From NCBI GenBank assembly GCA_016839785.1, contig JAEOTQ010000177.1, positions 46,132 to 110,131 on the forward strand: a DNA stretch of 64,000 bases, written 5' to 3'. Source of the DNA: Candidatus Hodarchaeota archaeon. Its GTDB lineage: Archaea; Asgardarchaeota; Heimdallarchaeia; Hodarchaeales; Hodarchaeaceae. A model generated the notes under the pieces. The model searched no databases and was not told the DNA's origin. It was given only the letters and a program-made list of their open reading frames with translations. Below, one piece after another: positions 21,772-31,448 of this stretch (positions within the stretch are counted from its first letter, which is position 1; each line of letters opens with the position of its first letter). Position numbers and translations under genes: made by a program.

Positions 21772-24700
21772 ATGAGAGACTTTTCTGAGGATAATCACTC
21801 GAATGCAGATTATTTGAAGAAGAGGTTACACCAAGGTCGACTGTTGATTCAATCGATAAAAACTCGCAAGTTACGGTCTGAACTAAAGTCAATCAAATCT
21901 CATACACGAACTAATATTCGCTCACAAACTCAAAAACTTACTAAATTTTCATGGCAAAGGAGTACCAGACAAAGAGGAGCAGGAATCATGCTCTCCTGGG
22001 GATTAGCCAGACGAAATGTCACTAGATCGAAATATCGTTCTTTTTTGTTGATTTTTGGTATTATGCTAACGGTTGCTCTTGAAACAGGTATTGTAATATC
22101 TGTTGATACGCTCTATGATGATTTTGTTTTTGACCATCGAAATCAAAACTACACCGATATTACAGTCCATCCTATTAATTGGCAGAATCTCGCGAATATG
22201 ACGCAAATGGCACAGAAAGTTGCAAAAACCCCAGGGGTGGTAAGAGCCAGTCCAGTATACTATACAAACATAGATAATCTATTTGGTCAAGCAGTCAAGA
22301 AGAGTAACATACTGATTTATGGAATTGACTCAAAAACACACCCTGATTTTCGACGAATCAATATTACATTAGGTGAACGGAGTTTAAAGAATAATCGGAT
22401 GATTATTTCCGATACATTGTATGATCAAGGTGGGTTAACTATAGGTGAGAGTGTTAATCTTAATGATTTAGGCCCCGAATACAAATCCCAAGAGATTACT
22501 CTCGGCGGAGTAATGGATGATGAACCATTTTTCGGGAATAAAATCGGTTATGCATTCATTCTTCTTGATATAGAGCTTCTATATAATATTGTTTATGAAA
22601 ATCAACTTATTTCTTTGTTATCAAGTGAAATTGATGTAGAAATCAATAGTATAGTAGATATCAAGAAAATTAGTGAAAATATCAAAGATGCTGTAGGGTT
22701 AAATTACTATGTTTTTTCAGAAAAAGATATTTCAGAGATTGAAGCATCAGGAATACGTGCCTATCAAACTGCAATGAATTTAGTTATCATGGCGTCATTC
22801 GTTGTGGAATTTTTGTTTATTACGAATGTTCTCGCAATTTCAATTCGTGATAGATCAAAAGAATTCGGTATCATAAGAGCTATTGGGGGGAAAGCATACC
22901 AATTGATTGAATCTGTTGCATATGAAATCCTCATTTATTCCGCTATTGGCTGTACTATAGGAGTAGGAGTTGGAATTGCCCTTTCTTCTGTGTTAACAGG
23001 TGTAATGGATGATTATTATGTGGGTCTTGAGTTTCAACAGCTTTCTATTCATACTACCTCACTTATTGTGACATATCTCTCAGGAGCCCTTGTTGCATTA
23101 ATTTCGGGTCTTTATCCCATCTTTTTAGCTATTTCCATGCCTGTAGTTCAAAATATTCATTCAAGGATGAGATCTGGATCATCTTTTGATACTTTAACTA
23201 ATTCTTGGAAATATACCGTAGGGACTGGATTTCTTCTAGCCCTTGTTGGTTTTATTCTGCAATATTATGTAGGCCCTTCGCGCTTTCTTGATTTTGAAAT
23301 ATTATCTCTCCATTTTGTTGCAGTTCTTATGATTTTTATTGGAACTGTATTTCTAGAAATAGGAATCCTTGTGTTTCTACCAAAAATTGCCATGAAATTA
23401 TTAATTGGATTCAGTTTCATTACTCGTACGATTTCCACGAGAAATATTGCACGTGAATTTCAAAAATCGCTTTTTACAATAATGACGTCTGCTATGGCAT
23501 TAACTTTCATAATTGTTGTCGGATTGATTAGTGCTGCTGTTATATCTGGTGTACCTGCATATTATGAAAATCAATGGGGAGCAATTGATCTTGTAGCGGA
23601 GACAAGAGATGCTGAACTCCTTCCTACAAGTACCACAAACCGAATAGATGGTATGAGTGGAGTTGTTCGGAGTTCATTCATACAAGAAGTGAGAACTGAG
23701 GTTGATAACACATCTAGTTATGTTTATGGTGTCGATCCCTTCAAGTATGTTTATTTTAGCGAACCACCTGTTGATAGTTTATCATCCTTCCAACCGTATG
23801 AACTACTTAGTCAATCAAATGTTAACAGGACGAATGGTGTAATTTCTCATATCCTATATCAAAAACTTCGAGTTCCGCTAGGATCTAATATTTCTTTAAA
23901 GATCGCAACTAATTCAACCGTAAATAATTCAATTGTAAAGAATTCAACCGTAGGTAATTCAACCGTAAAAATTAGAACAGTAAATGTAACTCTGACCGCA
24001 GTAGTTAAAGCCAATATATTCTTGGGGAATGGGGAGTATTTATATATTCCCAGTGCACAATTTCGTGAATTTTTCAACTCGACTGTTGCAAAGTGGTTTC
24101 TATGTGATGTGGAGGAGGATGAGGTTCAAAGAGTAAAGAGGAATCTAGAGTTTAATTTTCCAGAATTTAAAGAAGATGGCGTAGTTTCCATTACTTTTTT
24201 CACAGATATGATGAGAGAGAGTTTGATCTTTCAGTCAGCGATTTTCCAAGTCTTATTTTTTGAATCATTTATTTTAGCTGCCATTGCTCAATTTGTTTGC
24301 ATTTTAGTATCAACTTTGCGAATGGAGCGTGAAATTGGAATAATGCGAAGCTTGGGATTGAATCGGAGAGGAGTTTTCGGAATATTTATGACAGAATCAA
24401 TTGCATTAGGCATTTCAGCATTATTTGTTGGATTGTTTGATGGAATACTCGGTGCTGTACTGCTTGCGGATTATATCTCTGCATCGATTCCAATTTTTGT
24501 CTCGTTCCCTGCCACAAGTTTAATCATCTGGATGAGTATTTCCTTTCTAATAACAATTCTTAGTACCCTTCTCCCTTCATATCGATCAAGTCGTAAAAAT
24601 ATTGTCGCAACGATCTCTGGGCGTCCTATGGTAAAGGGATATGTCGATAAAGATCCATACCGTTTAAGATCGGAATTAAGAGCGGTTGAAAGCCCATGGC

Positions 24701-25995
24701 TTACCTCATATGGTTCTTCAAATCCAACTAATCCCTTTATGCATTATTCAGATGACCCTCTATCAGAATCCAGTCGAGTACGGAGAAGACAAAATCAAGT
24801 ATCGTCTGCAATATCTCAAAGTAGTATCCTTCGGTTTATTCGGAATAATATTCTACCAGTTCAGACGATATTTTTGTTATTAATGGCAATAATTACGTTC
24901 AATTATATTCTTGATGAAAACATAATAATGCGAGGATTAAATATTTTTGACACCTTTATTAGATTTACCATGTCCTTAACAGAATATATTGATCCTCAGT
25001 ATCAAGTTACATTCCTTAACATTAATCCAGTTCTGGTTATTGTTGGACTTGCTGCTATAACCCCCATTGCGCATTATTTAACATACAAACAAGGCCCCGA
25101 ATCTCTCCTTATTTCTGTTCTTGGAAGTATATTCTGGGCTTTCCTAGGGATAATAGTTATTATTTTTTCAATGTTAGTAACGGCTTCCCTTGTAATGATA
25201 ATTCTAATACCAGTTCAGGAGAGAATTGGAGATTTTTCGACTCCAAATACGGTAGTGCTACTCGAATTTTCTAAACTTGGCTCATTACTTCTAGTTGGTG
25301 TCATTTTCTTTTATCTCTTTCAAAAATTTTGGTGTTTTATGACTATCCGTGGGATAGAACCAGAATTATCATACAGAGGACATCTTACTCTTGTTAAAAC
25401 ATATGGTTCAAGGGGAAATATGGGATTCATATTTTTGCTTTTAGGTCATATCTTACTCCAAACTGTCTTATACTCAATTGCTGGCCCATTTTCATTGTCC
25501 GATCCGATATATCCCGATCTATCCACAACCCCTCCGATTGGACCAATTGAATTCTTAATTTATTCTATTTATGAAGTTGGATATTACCTCTTACTAATCA
25601 TATATACCATTGTACATTTTGGAAAATCGGTTAATTTAGCAAGGAGTGGTTCAGTCCAATATAAACCTGTTAAAGTGCAAATCCCTGCAGAAACTATTGT
25701 TAAAAGTCAAGAACTGGCAAATAAAATTCTAGTTGACAATGTAAAAGGCATTTCTCTAAACAAAAAAGGTATTCAACTATTTAGTGAGGTGATCAATGGC
25801 CAGAAACTTCTTTTTTTCCAAGAAAACGATAGTAAAATACCAGTAGCAATGAACTATGCACTCCATTTTCCAAAAGAGTACGTACCATTATCCGAAGAAC
25901 ATCCTACTCAAATAAAAGTACCAAATGCTGAACAAATCGAGCGGTTCGTACATCTAATGCAAGATTTCGAATTTAGAGAAGATGTAACTTCATAA
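21772..25995 (+). CDS. Large FtsX/MacB-like ABC permease with extra C-terminal membrane and soluble module
   Basis: LARRNVTRSKYRS, RDRSKEFGIIRAIG, REIGIMRSLG. Probable start ATG at 21988, preceded by GAGGAGCAGGA. Confidence 0.88.
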   Translation: MRDFSEDNHSNADYLKKRLHQGRLLIQSIKTRKLRSELKSIKSHTRTNIRSQTQKLTKFSWQRSTRQRGAGIMLSWGLARRNVTRSKYRSFLLIFGIMLTVALETGIVISVDTLYDDFVFDHRNQNYTDITVHPINWQNLANMTQMAQKVAKTPGVVRASPVYYTNIDNLFGQAVKKSNILIYGIDSKTHPDFRRINITLGERSLKNNRMIISDTLYDQGGLTIGESVNLNDLGPEYKSQEITLGGVMDDEPFFGNKIGYAFILLDIELLYNIVYENQLISLLSSEIDVEINSIVDIKKISENIKDAVGLNYYVFSEKDISEIEASGIRAYQTAMNLVIMASFVVEFLFITNVLAISIRDRSKEFGIIRAIGGKAYQLIESVAYEILIYSAIGCTIGVGVGIALSSVLTGVMDDYYVGLEFQQLSIHTTSLIVTYLSGALVALISGLYPIFLAISMPVVQNIHSRMRSGSSFDTLTNSWKYTVGTGFLLALVGFILQYYVGPSRFLDFEILSLHFVAVLMIFIGTVFLEIGILVFLPKIAMKLLIGFSFITRTISTRNIAREFQKSLFTIMTSAMALTFIIVVGLISAAVISGVPAYYENQWGAIDLVAETRDAELLPTSTTNRIDGMSGVVRSSFIQEVRTEVDNTSSYVYGVDPFKYVYFSEPPVDSLSSFQPYELLSQSNVNRTNGVISHILYQKLRVPLGSNISLKIATNSTVNNSIVKNSTVGNSTVKIRTVNVTLTAVVKANIFLGNGEYLYIPSAQFREFFNSTVAKWFLCDVEEDEVQRVKRNLEFNFPEFKEDGVVSITFFTDMMRESLIFQSAIFQVLFFESFILAAIAQFVCILVSTLRMEREIGIMRSLGLNRRGVFGIFMTESIALGISALFVGLFDGILGAVLLADYISASIPIFVSFPATSLIIWMSISFLITILSTLLPSYRSSRKNIVATISGRPMVKGYVDKDPYRLRSELRAVESPWLTSYGSSNPTNPFMHYSDDPLSESSRVRRRQNQVSSAISQSSILRFIRNNILPVQTIFLLLMAIITFNYILDENIIMRGLNIFDTFIRFTMSLTEYIDPQYQVTFLNINPVLVIVGLAAITPIAHYLTYKQGPESLLISVLGSIFWAFLGIIVIIFSMLVTASLVMIILIPVQERIGDFSTPNTVVLLEFSKLGSLLLVGVIFFYLFQKFWCFMTIRGIEPELSYRGHLTLVKTYGSRGNMGFIFLLLGHILLQTVLYSIAGPFSLSDPIYPDLSTTPPIGPIEFLIYSIYEVGYYLLLIIYTIVHFGKSVNLARSGSVQYKPVKVQIPAETIVKSQELANKILVDNVKGISLNKKGIQLFSEVINGQKLLFFQENDSKIPVAMNYALHFPKEYVPLSEEHPTQIKVPNAEQIERFVHLMQDFEFREDVTS
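23911..23970 (+). repeat. Four in-frame tandem 15-bp repeats (consensus AATTCAACCGTANNN)
   Basis: aattcaaccgtaaat / aattcaattgtaaag / aattcaaccgtaggt / aattcaaccgtaaaa, encoding NSTVN-NSIVK-NSTVG-NSTVK. Confidence 0.9.
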
Positions 25996-26320
25996 TTATA
26001 CCTGAATGATGAAATTCTCATATTAAGTATTCAGACAAGTATGTTTTTTAGAATCAATCTACTTTATCTGCATTAAACGTGTAAATTAATACAAAAATCT
26101 CTTGAATTCTTTAGTAAATTAGTTGAACCTCATTGGAAAATTTCACAACATTGATAAGAAAAATTTATTAAAATCATACCTCCTTCTGATAGGAGCCACA
26201 CTAATTTGGGGAGGAAGCTGGCCCCTTGGCAGGTGGTTGGTGTCTGAGGAAGTGGGAGGAGAAACGATTCCCCAATCAATGATTGCTATTGTGAGGTATT
26301 TTATCGTAATTTGGGCATTT
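25849..26320 (+). repeat. Diverged direct repeat, left copy (permease 3' end, spacer, DMT 5' end)
   Basis: Aligns by eye with 30219-30670; shared blocks include ccaaatgctga, acaaaaatctcttgaa, aaatcatacctccttctgat, ctaatttggggaggaagctggcccct. Confidence 0.9.
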
Positions 26321-26341
26321 ATCTTGGTATTTTCTTTGTAA
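26123..26341 (+). pseudogene. Truncated 5' copy of the EamA/DMT transporter gene
   Basis: KSYLLLIGATLIWGGSWPLGRWLVSEEVGGETIP matches the 30483 gene; stops after about 2 TM; 1-nt deletion relative to the homologous TTG start (38 vs 39 nt to AAATCA). Confidence 0.85.
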
Positions 26342-26458: not shown

Positions 26459-27130
26459 GTGACTAATTTGGTAATTGAGAGGCTTTACGAAGCGTTGAAG
26501 AAATCTGTAGAAGAATATAAACCCGAAAAGGCTAAGAAGATTACTAAAGAACTCTTAGAAGCCCAGGTTGACCCCTTAAAAGTGTTAGATGAAGTACTGA
26601 ATCCAACAATGGAAGAAATAGGGGAGAAATTTGATAATATGGACATATTTTTACCTGATCTTATGGGTGCTGCTGAAGCAATGCAAGCGGCTACCTCCAT
26701 CTTAACAGAACAGATTAAGAAAAGTTCCACTAAACCCACTGAATCGAAAGGGAAAGTTGTACTAGGAACAGTACTTGGAGATATTCATGAAATCGGGAAA
26801 AATATTGTTAAAATTATGCTAGAAACCTCAGGATTTGAAATATTTGATTTAGGAAAAGATGTTCCTTCTCTTAAGTTCATTGAAAAAGCTGAAGAAGTTA
26901 ATGCAGATGTGATAGCTTTATCAGCACTTATGACAACTACAATGCATTCTCAGAGAGAAGTTATTGAACTATTAGAAGCGTTAGGAAAGCGTGATAATTA
27001 TATAGTTCTTGTTGGTGGTAATCCAACTAGTGAAAATTGGAAAAAAGAGATAGGAGCTGATGGATGGGCTGAAACTGCAGTCGAAGCTACAAAGCTCATA
27101 ACGAAAATGATTAGCGAGAAGGTGAGATAG
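26459..27130 (+). CDS. Corrinoid (B12)-binding methyl-acceptor protein, MtmC/MtbC/MttC family
   Basis: Cap domain IFLPDLMGAAEAM; base-off/His-on GDIHEIGKNIV; SALMTTT; VGG. Confidence 0.95.
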   Translation: MTNLVIERLYEALKKSVEEYKPEKAKKITKELLEAQVDPLKVLDEVLNPTMEEIGEKFDNMDIFLPDLMGAAEAMQAATSILTEQIKKSSTKPTESKGKVVLGTVLGDIHEIGKNIVKIMLETSGFEIFDLGKDVPSLKFIEKAEEVNADVIALSALMTTTMHSQREVIELLEALGKRDNYIVLVGGNPTSENWKKEIGADGWAETAVEATKLITKMISEKVR

Positions 27131-28516
27131 ATGGGCACTCCTCCTTGGCGTATCAATGAAGTACTAGATAGAGCACAAAATGGACCAATCTGCTTAGAAA
27201 AGGATTTTGATTCTAACCTCTTTGTACCCGAACTTAAGAGAGTAATTAAGGAGTATGATATTTGTTTTGATAAATTGACACCCGTACCTTCTGATGATAC
27301 TCTAGCAGATAGTATTTGGAAAGCCGCTATGGATTTTTACCTCACGGTGGGAACTCTTTGCACTGATACTTATCGTAGAATTGTTTTTACAGAAAATGAA
27401 ATAAAGGAAGCTCTAGGAAATTTTCCTGGAAGGTTCACATTGGGCTTTGGACGTGATTCAAGAGAAATTACTGGTAGACAAATCGAAGATAAACGAAGAC
27501 CTTTCTGTCTCTTTTCACCTGACATCACATGTGACGAAGATCTTTTTGTTCCCATGAGTATGGCATATTTACAGGAACCTCTAGCTGATGGTGTTTGTGC
27601 TCCAATTCTTGATGAAATTGAGGGTATGTCAATTCGATCTGGTTCTCCATCCGAAATAAAGGGATCAGTCGCGCATGCCATGATGTTTAGAGAGGCTGCA
27701 AGACGAGTTGGTCGTCCTGGAATTTTTCTTAAGAGTGTAGGAACCGCAGAGTCTGACGCAGCTCAAATCGCAGCCAGCAATCCTGAATGGGGAGAAAGAT
27801 TAACTGATGGACGATTTGTGGCTAGTGTAACAGAACTGAAAGTGGATAATTCACTCTTGAACAAAATGGTACATTTTCATACATATGGTTGTTTTGTAGG
27901 AGCACTTACGGGTCCTATTTTTGGAGGATTTGCTGGGGGCCCTGAAGGTACTGCTATTGTTGGCCTTGCTTATCATTTACAAGGATTACTTGTGAATCAA
28001 GCACATTTCTTAAATTATTTTCCGTTTCACTTGAAACACACTTGTAATACAATGCGTGAGCTTCTTTGGGTAATCTCTATCACCTATCAAGCCTTATCTC
28101 GGAACAGTAATTTAATCTCTCTGTCTAATGGATTTACTGCAGCTGGACCATGTACCCCCATGGTCTTAAGAGAGGCCGCAACTCACTCACTTGTAAGTGT
28201 TGTTTCCGGTTCTAATCTTTGGGAAATAGCTGTCGCTAAGAATAGGAATAAGAACTTCGCCACACCCATGGAAGCTAGGATTGCCTGTGAAGTCGGTTGT
28301 GGAGCAGCAAAAGAAAGGATTTCAAGAAGTGATGCGAATGAGATTGCGCTAGCTCTTCTTAAAACTTATGAAGAAGATATCGAGAACGCACCACTAGGGA
28401 AGAGCTTTCGTGATTGCTATAATATACGAAAGATTAAACCTTCAGTAGAATATATGGATCTCTTCAATAGAATGAAAAAAGAACTAAAGGACAATGGTGT
28501 TCCATTCGTATATTAA
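27131..28516 (+). CDS. mtmB: Monomethylamine:corrinoid methyltransferase (MtmB) family protein, pyrrolysine-free
   Basis: End-to-end similarity to MtmB: CTDTYRRIVFTENEI, GRPG, ELKVD, PIFGGFAGG, AGPCTPM, MEARIACEV, APLGKSFRDCY; no internal TAG. Confidence 0.9.
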   Translation: MGTPPWRINEVLDRAQNGPICLEKDFDSNLFVPELKRVIKEYDICFDKLTPVPSDDTLADSIWKAAMDFYLTVGTLCTDTYRRIVFTENEIKEALGNFPGRFTLGFGRDSREITGRQIEDKRRPFCLFSPDITCDEDLFVPMSMAYLQEPLADGVCAPILDEIEGMSIRSGSPSEIKGSVAHAMMFREAARRVGRPGIFLKSVGTAESDAAQIAASNPEWGERLTDGRFVASVTELKVDNSLLNKMVHFHTYGCFVGALTGPIFGGFAGGPEGTAIVGLAYHLQGLLVNQAHFLNYFPFHLKHTCNTMRELLWVISITYQALSRNSNLISLSNGFTAAGPCTPMVLREAATHSLVSVVSGSNLWEIAVAKNRNKNFATPMEARIACEVGCGAAKERISRSDANEIALALLKTYEEDIENAPLGKSFRDCYNIRKIKPSVEYMDLFNRMKKELKDNGVPFVY

Positions 28517-29377: not shown

Positions 29378-30052
29378 ATGAACAAAGGTTTTTTATTTTT
29401 GATCGTGATCCTTTTAGGTCTTTCTTTTGCGACCTATCCTTTACCTGTTGAGGGAGCAGTGATTCATAATGAAACTTCCCTCTTTCAACCGCTTTCGATT
29501 TCGGAACTCAGTCTATCCGGGAGGTTCTATTTTGAGAATAGTTCAGAACTGAATTCAATCTTTCGGTTATTATACTATTCTGCGGTACGTATCGGGGAAA
29601 AATATAATGTGTCTTTCAGTTTAGACAGTAATTCAACGACAAACGTGCGAATTACTTGTTCTATTAGTCCTAATATGTGGGAGGGCCCTACAGAGATAAA
29701 TCTTCAACCCTTTGAGACAAAGAGTCAGATTTATTTCTCCCATGTCTGTGGGGATAATCTAGATGTGATTAGTCCAGTCTTCAAACTCCAGTTAATGAAT
29801 AGTACAGCTAAGGTGAGCGGATATTATGAAGCAGTCTTGTTATTTGCTGGATATCAACACCCCTCCTGTGGGATTGGCCAAATAATCGTTTCAAATATTA
29901 CACAATGGTTATTCGATATTTCATCTAGTAAGACTACTAGTACGACTACTAGTAACACTACCTCCGATGTGACCAGAGAATTTCTAATTTATGTCTTCCT
30001 CGGGCCAATACTTATTGCATTCAAAAGGAAAAGGCTATTATTTACCAGATGA
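29378..30052 (+). CDS. Secreted/surface protein with C-terminal membrane anchor
   Basis: Signal peptide, several N-x-S/T sequons, S/T-rich linker, TM and KRKR tail. Confidence 0.75.
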   Translation: MNKGFLFLIVILLGLSFATYPLPVEGAVIHNETSLFQPLSISELSLSGRFYFENSSELNSIFRLLYYSAVRIGEKYNVSFSLDSNSTTNVRITCSISPNMWEGPTEINLQPFETKSQIYFSHVCGDNLDVISPVFKLQLMNSTAKVSGYYEAVLLFAGYQHPSCGIGQIIVSNITQWLFDISSSKTTSTTTSNTTSDVTREFLIYVFLGPILIAFKRKRLLFTR

Positions 30053-30218
30053 TTGTGGTATTCCAAAAATCTATATCGAATTATTATGTGAATCCAAAAA
30101 ACAACATAATCGTGTTTTTATTTGGATTAGATACCGTTTTTCGACATTATTTCATATCTTAGGTGTCTATTTGGTGTGTGCGCGAAGCACACTGTCGTGT
30201 GATTCAATTGAGATACAT

Positions 30219-30365
30219 ATGATTTATACCTTTCATTTCACAAATGAGTATACAGTATTATCCGAAGATCTTAAAACTAAAGTAAAAGTCCCAAATGCTG
30301 ATCAAATACAACGATTCATGCATCTAATGAATGACATAGAGTTTACACAAGAAACGTCTATTTAA
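30219..30365 (+). pseudogene. Orphan copy of the last 48 codons of the large permease
   Basis: MIYTFHFTNEYTVLSEDLKTKVKVPNADQIQRFMHLMNDIEFTQETSI aligns without gaps to MNYALHFPKEYVPLSEEHPTQIKVPNAEQIERFVHLMQDFEFREDVTS. Confidence 0.85.
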
Positions 30366-30670
30366 AGACACAAAAATGACAGACAAATGACATTTTTTCT
30401 ACAACACTTATTTTGTACTGCCATATCAAAGGAAATAACTACAAAAATCTCTTGAAATTTCAAGTAAAATAGTTGAATCTCATTGGAAAGCACCCAAAAC
30501 GTAGAAAGAAAATATGAACTGAAATCATACCTCCTTCTGATATTAGCCACGCTAATTTGGGGAGGAAGCTGGCCCTTAAGCAGATGGTTAGTCTCCGAGG
30601 AAGTAGGTGGTGAAACTATTCCACCTTTAATGGTTGGGATCTTGAGGTATTTCATAGCTATTTGGGTTTT
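30219..30670 (+). repeat. Diverged direct repeat, right copy
   Basis: Counterpart of 25849-26320. Confidence 0.9.
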
Positions 30671-31448
30671 TTTCTTTTTATTACGATGGCGTGAGGGTAC
30701 AATTAACTTTCCTGCTGTAACCGACCACTGGAAATCTATATTTCTAATGGGGTTGACTTCTGTAACCATTTACCAAATTGGTTTTTTATATGGAGAATAT
30801 TATACAGCTGCAAGTGATGCAAGTCTAATTGTGGCAACAAATCCAATCTGGGTCTTCATATTATCTGGATTCTTTCTGGGTGAAGGTTTTGGATGGAAAA
30901 AGGCAACAGGTGTCCTATTAGCATTTTTTGGGGTCTTATTCGTTGTAGGATTTTCACCCAATGTAGATGTCCCAAATCGATTTCTAGGCACTCTCTTCAT
31001 CCTTTTTGCTGCATTAGGTTACTCTACATATACGATTATTTATCGACACTACATTAATGGATTTGATACACCCTCTGACAAACCCTCTTCACTTTTTGTT
31101 ATCACATGGGTTTCTTTCTTCGGTTTTCTTATCACAACTCCAATTTCATTGGTTTTGAATCCAGAATATTTAAACCTTTTTCAATATTTGCAAATTCCCG
31201 AACGTATCTGGCTTGGAGCGGCGTATTTATCATTATTATCAACGGTGGTTGCTTATTGGTTATATTTAGAGGCCGTTAAGAGGTTGAATGCCAGCCGTGC
31301 TGCAATCTTCATAAATTTAGTACCCGTATGGGGGGTTTCATTATCAGTTCTTTTTTTGGGGGAATTACTTGATCCATTAGTCCATACTTCAGCCTTCATT
31401 TTAATTTCCTTGGGAATATTCTTAGTGAATCGGAGTCAAAATGGGTAA
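30483..31448 (+). CDS. EamA/DMT family transporter
   Basis: LIWGGSW, two EamA repeats, AAIFINLVPVWGV...LGE; 10 TM. Confidence 0.93.
   Translation: MESTQNVERKYELKSYLLLILATLIWGGSWPLSRWLVSEEVGGETIPPLMVGILRYFIAIWVFFFLLRWREGTINFPAVTDHWKSIFLMGLTSVTIYQIGFLYGEYYTAASDASLIVATNPIWVFILSGFFLGEGFGWKKATGVLLAFFGVLFVVGFSPNVDVPNRFLGTLFILFAALGYSTYTIIYRHYINGFDTPSDKPSSLFVITWVSFFGFLITTPISLVLNPEYLNLFQYLQIPERIWLGAAYLSLLSTVVAYWLYLEAVKRLNASRAAIFINLVPVWGVSLSVLFLGELLDPLVHTSAFILISLGIFLVNRSQNG

Follow-up and report, generated by a model that had tools for sequence, protein, structure and literature searches.

What does a lysine do at the position that pyrrolysine (Pyl) occupies in the archaeal monomethylamine methyltransferase MtmB? 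The question is raised by two adjacent genes in a 64,000-nucleotide stretch of Candidatus Hodarchaeota archaeon (assembly GCA_016839785.1, contig JAEOTQ010000177.1, positions 46,132 to 110,131 of the forward strand; hereafter the window, whose own numbering we use), which encode a corrinoid protein and a Pyl-free member of the MtmB superfamily. Only one member of this large Pyl-free family has a known function. A sequence-only reading of the stretch had proposed that the enzyme acts on a different substrate and that its lysine codon may represent a state before or after Pyl. The first proposal agrees with our results and the second does not: the lysine is a clade-specific pocket residue and not the trace of a pyrrolysine codon, which closes an attractive but wrong evolutionary story. 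We consider it probable (roughly 0.7) that the pair comprises the substrate:corrinoid methyltransferase (MT1) and cognate corrinoid protein of a cobalamin-dependent system that takes an activated donor other than monomethylamine, with Lys201 positioning the substrate.

The bases bear out the earlier description of a 461-residue open reading frame (ORF) that lacks an internal amber codon, or any other internal stop, and that reads AAG at codon 201 in the context GRPGIFL-K-SVGT. They also bear out its pairing with a corrinoid protein, whose two B12-binding domains are encoded directly upstream. The corrinoid gene ends in TAG at 27128-27130, and the ATG of the methyltransferase gene begins at the next base. 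PF05369 (MtmB) matches the 461-residue protein at 325 bits (E 1e-96; gathering cut-off 25), with residues 8-456 covering profile positions 3-449 of 450, and no NCBIfam model takes the protein. A phmmer search against the chains of the PDB aligns residues 11-459 with Methanosarcina barkeri MtmB (1l2q, 1tv2; E ~1e-67). The AlphaFold2 model, computed with 99 relatives as input, has a mean predicted local distance difference test score of 96.7. Superposed with Foldseek on 1tv2, 1l2q and 1nth, as the sequence-only reading had suggested doing, it gives a template-modelling (TM) score of 0.95 and a root-mean-square deviation of 1.9 Å at 30% identity; the enzyme is thus modelled as a TIM barrel of the MtmB type. 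In the corrinoid protein, Gly107, Asp108, His110, Gly113 and Lys114 are invariant across 49 aligned cognate partners, and the DxHxxG motif formed by Asp108, His110 and Gly113 supplies the histidine ligand to cobalt. Proteins 87-93% identical to the methyltransferase are present in other assemblies, and relatives in the range of 79-93% carry the source labels Candidatus Hodarchaeum mangrovi, Hodarchaeota/Hodarchaeales, Heimdallarchaeota or Promethearchaeota. Short contigs from the RNA libraries of three studies map onto the methyltransferase gene at 90-98% identity, a weak hint of transcription; DNA carry-over is possible. A scan for promoters (sigma-70) and terminators shows no enrichment (12 sites against 16.8 expected), the sigma-70 consensus being unsuited to an archaeon. 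The gene pair is real, intact and conserved, and its enzyme belongs to a group that is recognised but poorly studied.

Table 1. Features of the methyltransferase cassette and its insertion site, in window coordinates
Feature	Coordinates	Strand	Basis
Corrinoid (B12-binding) protein gene, 223 aa	26459..27130	+	PF02310 (B12-binding) and PF02607 (B12-binding_2), Pfam
Cobalamin-binding motif Asp108-x-His110-x-x-Gly113 of the corrinoid protein	26780..26797	+	Alignment of 49 cognate corrinoid proteins
Pyl-free MtmB-superfamily methyltransferase gene, 461 aa, predicted substrate:corrinoid MT1	27131..28516	+	PF05369
Codon 201, AAG (Lys), pyrrolysine column	27731..27733	+	Context GRPGIFL-K-SVGT; PDB-chain alignment
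Codon 204 (Gly); Glu in all Pyl-type sequences	27740..27742	+	Triad tabulation
Codons 228-229 (Arg-Phe); His-Glu in Pyl-type sequences	27812..27817	+	PDB-chain alignment; triad tabulation
Codon 259 (Leu); Glu in Pyl-type sequences	27905..27907	+	PDB-chain alignment; triad tabulation
Repeat copy A, left scar: FtsX-like 3' end, spacer, truncated EamA 5' fragment	25849..26331	+	Direct repeats
Repeat copy B, right scar: dead FtsX-like C-terminus fragment, spacer, intact EamA 5' end	30219..30682	+	Direct repeats
ORF of 224 aa, no known family, inside the inserted segment	29378..30052	+	No Pfam match

Lys201 falls on the residue marked X (Pyl202) in 1l2q, and the formal alignment is exact and ungapped around the site, as had been expected from the M. 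barkeri segments quoted in the sequence-only reading, which do appear in it. The statement that both acidic residues in these segments give way to hydrophobic ones also holds, MtmB Glu229 and Glu259 corresponding to Phe229 and Leu259. The third Pyl-type glutamate, Glu205 of MtmB (the E of GPE), is Gly204, and His228 of MtmB is Arg228. In the model, Lys201 lies at the end of the barrel strand formed by residues 199-201, and residues 201, 229 and 259 sit on three consecutive strands of a barrel rich in aromatic residues. Pyl202 of MtmB is likewise described in the text of PMC9842639 as anchored to a strand within the barrel. The glutamate triad at columns 204, 229 and 259 is found in 13/13 rows with an in-frame TAG and in 0/186 other rows; the three columns read EEE in the TAG rows and GFL in all 13 rows of the Asgard Lys clade. 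These glutamates are reportedly catalytic in MtmB. A literature search linking MtmB with Glu259 turned up no paper. Column 228 is His in all 13 Pyl rows and Arg in 13/13 rows of the Asgard Lys clade, in 10/10 Gln rows of that lineage and in 19 Val rows of the tree, and the barrel-strand motifs are nearly identical among the three clades. The glutamate triad is therefore strictly tied to pyrrolysine, and a single pocket design that includes a conserved Arg228 is common to the Lys, Gln and Val clades.

The family is large, with 960 cluster representatives matching at an E-value of at most 0.001, of which 224 remain at 1e-30 or below. We aligned the query with 270 relatives and tabulated the Pyl column for rows of at least 400 residues, sorted by identity to the query. 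All 54 relatives with at least 75% identity carry Lys. At 60-74% identity the column holds Gln (43), Lys (3) or His (1), at 50-59% Val (7), Ala (5), Gln (1) or Met (1), and at 40-49% His (3) or Val (1); below 40% almost any residue occurs. Fixation of lysine is limited to a single Hodarchaeales-like genus, to which the gene itself is also confined within the host's class: it is present in 15 of 21 other genomes of the genus, with one distant match elsewhere among 83 genomes. Distinct gene contexts show 16 AAA and 7 AAG codons for this lysine. Since both codons are used, lysine is selected as an amino acid in one clade, and AAG is no frozen neighbour of UAG.

A FastTree phylogeny of 199 rows and an IQ-TREE quick tree of 87 rows, both unrooted, agree in topology. 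The Lys clade (support 100) is nested within a grade of Gln-bearing sequences whose codon is CAA, a placement that is valid unless the root lies inside the Lys clade. By source names this grade comprises Bathyarchaeia and a bacterial protein of [Eubacterium] cellulosolvens that is 71% identical to the query. The Lys and Gln sequences together are sister to the Val clade (support 100), and His-bearing clades come next. The TAG genes group in a single clade (support 100) elsewhere in the tree, and its sister clade (support 90) includes Pyl-free homologues of Methanococcoides methylutens and strain AM1; in the query-anchored alignment, every full-length extract of a Pyl gene has its TAG at column 201/202. 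Forcing the Lys and Pyl clades together, a group named post hoc after inspection of the tree, costs 437.8 log-likelihood units and is rejected by the approximately unbiased (AU) test (p-AU 0.0023). A second, unrelated origin of lysine at the column is seen in P0224 and a paralogue (L132) of 'Ca. Formimonas warabiya', a genome that holds one MtmB gene with a single in-frame TAG and seven Pyl-free paralogues of different clades (L124-L135, G086). MtmB genes with a single TAG number 37 in 19/201 genomes of a Thermoplasmatota-like phylum. Three Pyl-free sequences inside or beside the Pyl clade (P0244, P0266 and P0205) have Ile, Leu or Gly at the Pyl column and keep one or two of the three glutamates. 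Pyrrolysine may have been lost recently in these sequences, which make better 'post-Pyl' material than the Lys clade does.

The gene content of the host bears on the substrate. Its genome assembly is 84.5% complete and spans 248 contigs, and the genome-wide negatives given here apply to this assembly. McrA, MtrH and CdhC were not found, and MtbA has no match above NCBIfam cut-offs. Of the Pyl proteins, PylS and PylD were searched for: the C-terminal domain of PylS reaches only 25.1 bits (cut-off 178) and PylD only 21.6 bits (cut-off 150). None of the 16 tRNAs found by aragorn has a CUA anticodon. Of 1431 long ORFs, 322 stop at TAG, and so does the corrinoid gene itself. This ordinary use of TAG, together with the missing Pyl machinery and methanogenesis genes, argues against amber recoding. 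By its gene content the host looks like a non-methanogen, in line with the sequence-only reading, which had also held, by analogy to Pyl-free MttB homologues, that the substrate differs from that of MtmB. A different substrate is likely, given that the Pyl-type acidic residues are lacking and the host resembles a non-methanogen. For Asgard biology, the pair suggests that a lineage lacking methanogenesis and acetogenesis carries out corrinoid-dependent demethylation. The earlier statement that the cassette holds no gene for the second methyltransferase (MT2) or the activator RamA is matched by their absence from the window ORFs scanned, which were 7 plus 44 of the 52 non-overlapping ORFs of at least 110 residues, the sole one outside the scan being a gene fragment at 29991-30365. 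Elsewhere in the genome there are two candidates for an MT2 that would take up the methyl group. One is a 464-residue MtaA/CmuA-like protein encoded beside a CobW gene on contig C200. The other is a protein with a homocysteine S-methyltransferase domain (PF02574) on contig C202 (L166 6656-9251), whose gene is preceded by that of a second corrinoid protein, 40% identical to the one in the window, and followed by an MttB-family gene cut by the contig end. The C202 cluster resembles a pathway of the methionine-synthase kind, by which the methyl group of a methylated amine would reach homocysteine.

Three characterized systems provide a frame for the pair. With M. barkeri MtmB1/MtmC (1L2Q, 1NTH, 1TV2) it shares the Pfam family, the TIM-barrel fold, the length of the enzyme, an adjoining gene for a B12-binding partner and the placement of residue 201 on the Pyl202 column. 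It differs in the absence of UAG and pyrrolysine, in the pocket substitutions given above, in a non-methanogen host in which Pyl genes were not found, and in its position on a distant branch of the family tree. Closer in kind is MtqB, the Pyl-free MtmB homologue of M. methylutens Q3c, which removes methyl groups from tetramethylammonium and choline and which the text of Kashyap et al. 2026 (PMC13044021) presents as the first Pyl-free MtmB with a shown function. The same text describes Pyl-free MtmBs as known for years and as present across Asgard archaea, and gives the strain AM1 homologue as 78% identical to MtqB. Like the window pair, MtqB/MtqC combines a Pyl-free MT1 of the MtmB family with an adjacent corrinoid protein, and the mechanism, attack by Co(I) on a positioned donor, is probably the same. 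We located the MtqB clade (P0265, P0309 and P0311) by a homology search with P0265; P0309 is from M. methylutens, P0311 bears the name of strain AM1, and the comparisons that follow concern these clade members. The window protein is 31% identical to P0309 and lies on another branch (support 98-100). Columns 204/229/259 read M, L, C in the MtqB clade but G, F, L in the window protein; column 228 is His in P0309 and Arg here, and the Pyl column is Val or Gln as opposed to Lys. MtqB, moreover, operates in a methanogen with MtbA and RamA. The third system is the Pyl-free MttB superfamily, MtgB included, whose members act on glycine betaine, proline betaine, carnitine or gamma-butyrobetaine. It offers the same theme, proteins that are related to a Pyl enzyme but free of Pyl and that work with a corrinoid protein. 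Its sequence family, however, is unrelated (PF06253 as against PF05369), and the Foldseek TM is only ~0.5.

The Pyl-free MtmB class, Asgard members included, is thus already in print, and the window gene belongs to it. As far as their text goes, neither Kashyap et al. 2026 nor Holland et al. 2022 picks out the Hodarchaeales clade with Lys, the Gln and Val clades that are its sisters, or Arg228. A literature search joining MtmB with Heimdallarchae, or Hodarchaeales with corrinoid, returned only Sun et al. 2021 and its preprint, in which MtmB appears once, for Sifarchaeia. The Pyl-tied glutamate triad, the pocket shared by the Lys, Gln and Val clades with its Arg228, and the two-gene cassette with a corrinoid partner offer handles for choosing assays.

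We propose that the barrel binds an already activated N-methyl compound bearing an acidic group. Lys201 (Gln or His in the sister clades) and Arg228 would serve as polar anchors for this donor, and the Co(I) of the partner corrinoid protein would take the methyl group by direct attack, as in MtgB and MtqB. Lys201 would then be a substrate-positioning residue and no stand-in for pyrrolysine. In MtgB, as described in the text of PMC13080624, two aromatic residues hold the quaternary nitrogen of glycine betaine while Arg312 and His348 hold its carboxylate; Arg228, Lys201 and the aromatic residues of the window enzyme could hold an acidic quaternary amine in the same way. Monomethylamine is an unlikely donor. 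Our guess, by analogy and because of the conserved Arg228 and the aromatic residues, is a donor that bears an acidic group and is quaternary or otherwise N-methylated, for instance a betaine or an N-methyl amino acid. Genes for an amino-acid permease, racemase-like proteins of the enolase superfamily, a C-N hydrolase and a TRAP transporter, found as neighbours in relatives, were counted in favour of an acidic or amino-acid-like donor.

Several observations weigh against this proposal. The neighbours vary between genomes, which leaves the contextual signal for an amino-acid-like substrate thin. A positively charged lysine in the pocket speaks against a donor that is purely cationic, without thereby identifying an acidic one, and the pocket residues themselves are assigned from strand positions and the alignment to MtmB. 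Methyl transfer by the Lys clade and its substrate are predictions by analogy. The corrinoid protein scores 204.6 bits against the NCBIfam model TIGR02370 (methyltransferase cognate corrinoid protein), under its cut-off of 215.3, and falls likewise under the cut-offs of the MtgC and MtbC models. No RACo/RamA activator, no MtrH, no CdhC and no pterin-binding methyltransferase was found in the host genome, whose lone Pterin_bind match is a dihydropteroate synthase; tblastn with the relatives' RACo, pterin methyltransferase, AdaA and Ogt gave no match there either.

The surroundings of homologous genes elsewhere show how widely the pairing is kept. The best 80 matches of a search with a 14-row alignment included no methanogen genes. 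In 53 of 78 related loci, from many phyla, the MtmB homologue has a homologous corrinoid gene no more than 6 kb away, mostly directly upstream on the same strand. Within the genus, the corrinoid gene is directly upstream at 10 of the 22 places listed (1.5-kb flanks). Some Val-type bacterial loci encode a RACo activator with a UroD-type MT2 (L088, L089, L106) or a pterin-binding MT2 (L064, L072), so that the Val lineage works as a regular corrinoid methyl-transfer system; a further Val-type locus (L063) holds a TRAP transporter. Among Gln-type loci, L060 from Bathyarchaeia encodes a corrinoid protein, MtmB, an amino-acid permease, an unknown protein, an enolase-superfamily racemase-like protein and a C-N hydrolase, and L061 has a UroD-type gene at its end. 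At four of the 22 genus places a copy 77-80% identical to the window gene is followed by an Ada-type sensor (Ada_Zn_binding and HTH_18) and an O6-methylguanine-DNA methyltransferase (Ogt). These copies (L041 9327-11893, also L039, L044 and L085, with L046 2-800 as a further case) face a 45%-identical His-type MtmB paralogue, and genes for a major facilitator superfamily (MFS) protein, a Ras-like GTPase and Roadblock proteins lie beyond. In L046 the Ada sensor, Ogt, both MtmB paralogues, an MFS transporter, a nitroreductase and the corrinoid gene are gathered within 10 kb.

Two side observations concern the same set of loci. A nitroreductase-family gene lies directly upstream of the corrinoid/MtmB genes in L041 (11949-12623), L044 (12589-13263) and L046 (6653-7318); its best NCBIfam match is BluB, the cobalamin lower-ligand synthase, at 63 bits against a cut-off of 150. 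In deltaproteobacterial metagenome-assembled genomes (L090, L091, L094, L095 and L122), His-type Pyl-free MtmB and corrinoid genes occur in clusters that resemble those for histidine utilisation, with an aromatic amino acid (histidine-type) ammonia-lyase, a formiminotransferase-cyclodeaminase, an amidohydrolase, an aminotransferase and a TRAP transporter. The composition of these clusters suggests an N-methylated histidine derivative as their substrate.

Other explanations of the locus have to be set against these data. Lys201 might be a stepping stone to or from pyrrolysine, or might be modified post-translationally to do its job. It lies exactly on the Pyl column, is invariant across its clade, and lysine is the backbone of pyrrolysine. 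Against this stand the nesting of the Lys clade among CAA-encoded Gln sequences beside a Val clade, with the Pyl clade in the other major branch; the rejection of a joint Lys and Pyl group; the preponderance of AAA over AAG; the presence of Gln or Val at the column in relatives with near-identical pockets; the absence of all three Pyl-associated glutamates and the failure to find the Pyl machinery; and the independent appearance of lysine in the P0224/Formimonas clade. We hold this explanation to be highly improbable, and we find it still harder to credit that the enzyme is a genuine monomethylamine methyltransferase that dispenses with pyrrolysine. The NCBI pipeline does name relatives 'monomethylamine:corrinoid methyltransferase', and a small activity on monomethylamine is given for MtqB in the text of PMC13044021. 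The pipeline name, however, rests on family membership only, the triad found in all 13 Pyl rows is absent, and the host shows no McrA, no MtrH and no MtbA match above NCBIfam cut-offs. That the enzyme is an MtqB orthologue acting on tetramethylammonium and/or choline is unlikely, even though MtqB is the one Pyl-free homologue with a shown function, Asgard Pyl-free MtmBs are noted in the same text, and the barrel of the window enzyme is aromatic-rich. The low identity to P0309, the place of the MtqB clade beside the Pyl clade and apart from the query, and the differing residues at columns 204/229/259 and 228 all speak against orthology, and Lys201 with Arg228 would be expected to repel a purely cationic substrate.

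The Ada/Ogt-linked copies invite a different idea, that halomethanes or other small electrophiles are the methyl donors of the enzyme, or that it is otherwise tied to alkylation stress. The sensor and repair genes directly follow the sister copy in four related genomes, L046 assembles all of these parts, and a Pyl-free MtmB-superfamily protein is the most strongly induced Formimonas protein on dichloromethane, according to the text of Holland et al. 2022 (PMC9768040). But the linked loci all belong to one genus and are not independent, the other 60-odd loci show no such link, tblastn found no AdaA or Ogt homologue in the host assembly, and the window copy is of the corrinoid-linked type. The induced Formimonas protein, moreover, could be any of the seven Pyl-free paralogues, and the article text puts it at ~30% identity to other family members. 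This reading seems to us quite unlikely. We give a similarly low chance to a more speculative version in which Lys201 and Arg228 would provide Pyl-independent binding and activation of an N-methyl compound other than a simple quaternary amine, for instance an N-methyl amino acid, the methyl group would pass into biosynthesis, for example to homocysteine through the C202 cluster, and the Ada/Ogt link would reflect DNA-alkylating donors. If it were true, the methyl group in Hodarchaeales would feed biosynthesis rather than energy metabolism, and the pathway of the Ada/Ogt-linked sister copy would handle or generate DNA-alkylating methyl donors. Finally, the cassette might be a decaying passenger that has no function in this genome. 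Its insertion between host genes left dead fragments, the four nearest empty-site relatives lack the gene, and the genome yielded neither an activator nor a clear MT2. Both ORFs are nonetheless intact and tightly coupled, highly similar proteins persist in other assemblies, the synonymous lysine codons show selection on the protein, and the genes have stayed open although the insertion is old. A mere passenger is very improbable. The system that we favour remains a corrinoid-dependent methyltransferase pair with an activated, non-monomethylamine donor.

The two-gene cassette was inserted between an FtsX-like gene and an EamA gene. Four related genomes have these two genes side by side, EamA coming right after the FtsX-like gene with ~120 bases between them, and no copy of the Lys-type gene is present in these empty-site genomes. 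In the window the cassette is flanked by direct repeats A and B (Table 1), with dead remnants of EamA at ~26144-26340 and of the FtsX-like C-terminus within 29991-30365. The empty sites in the relatives and the flanking repeats place the insertion at this point, and the divergence of the repeats to 72-86% identity indicates that it is old. The 224-residue ORF of the inserted segment does not stand next to the methyltransferase gene in the related loci and has paralogues of ~33% identity elsewhere in the host genome. The 861 bases between it and the methyltransferase gene hold no recognisable gene remnant and no repeat. The FtsX/MacB-like permease to the left (21772-25995) is unusually long at 1407 residues, and its last ~45 codons belong to the part duplicated by the insertion. 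On the other side of the site, matches to the EamA orthologue in two related genomes (G054:C195:3352-4308 and G049:C82:56911-57870; L171 and L172) each contain one TAG, in the gene or just upstream of its start.

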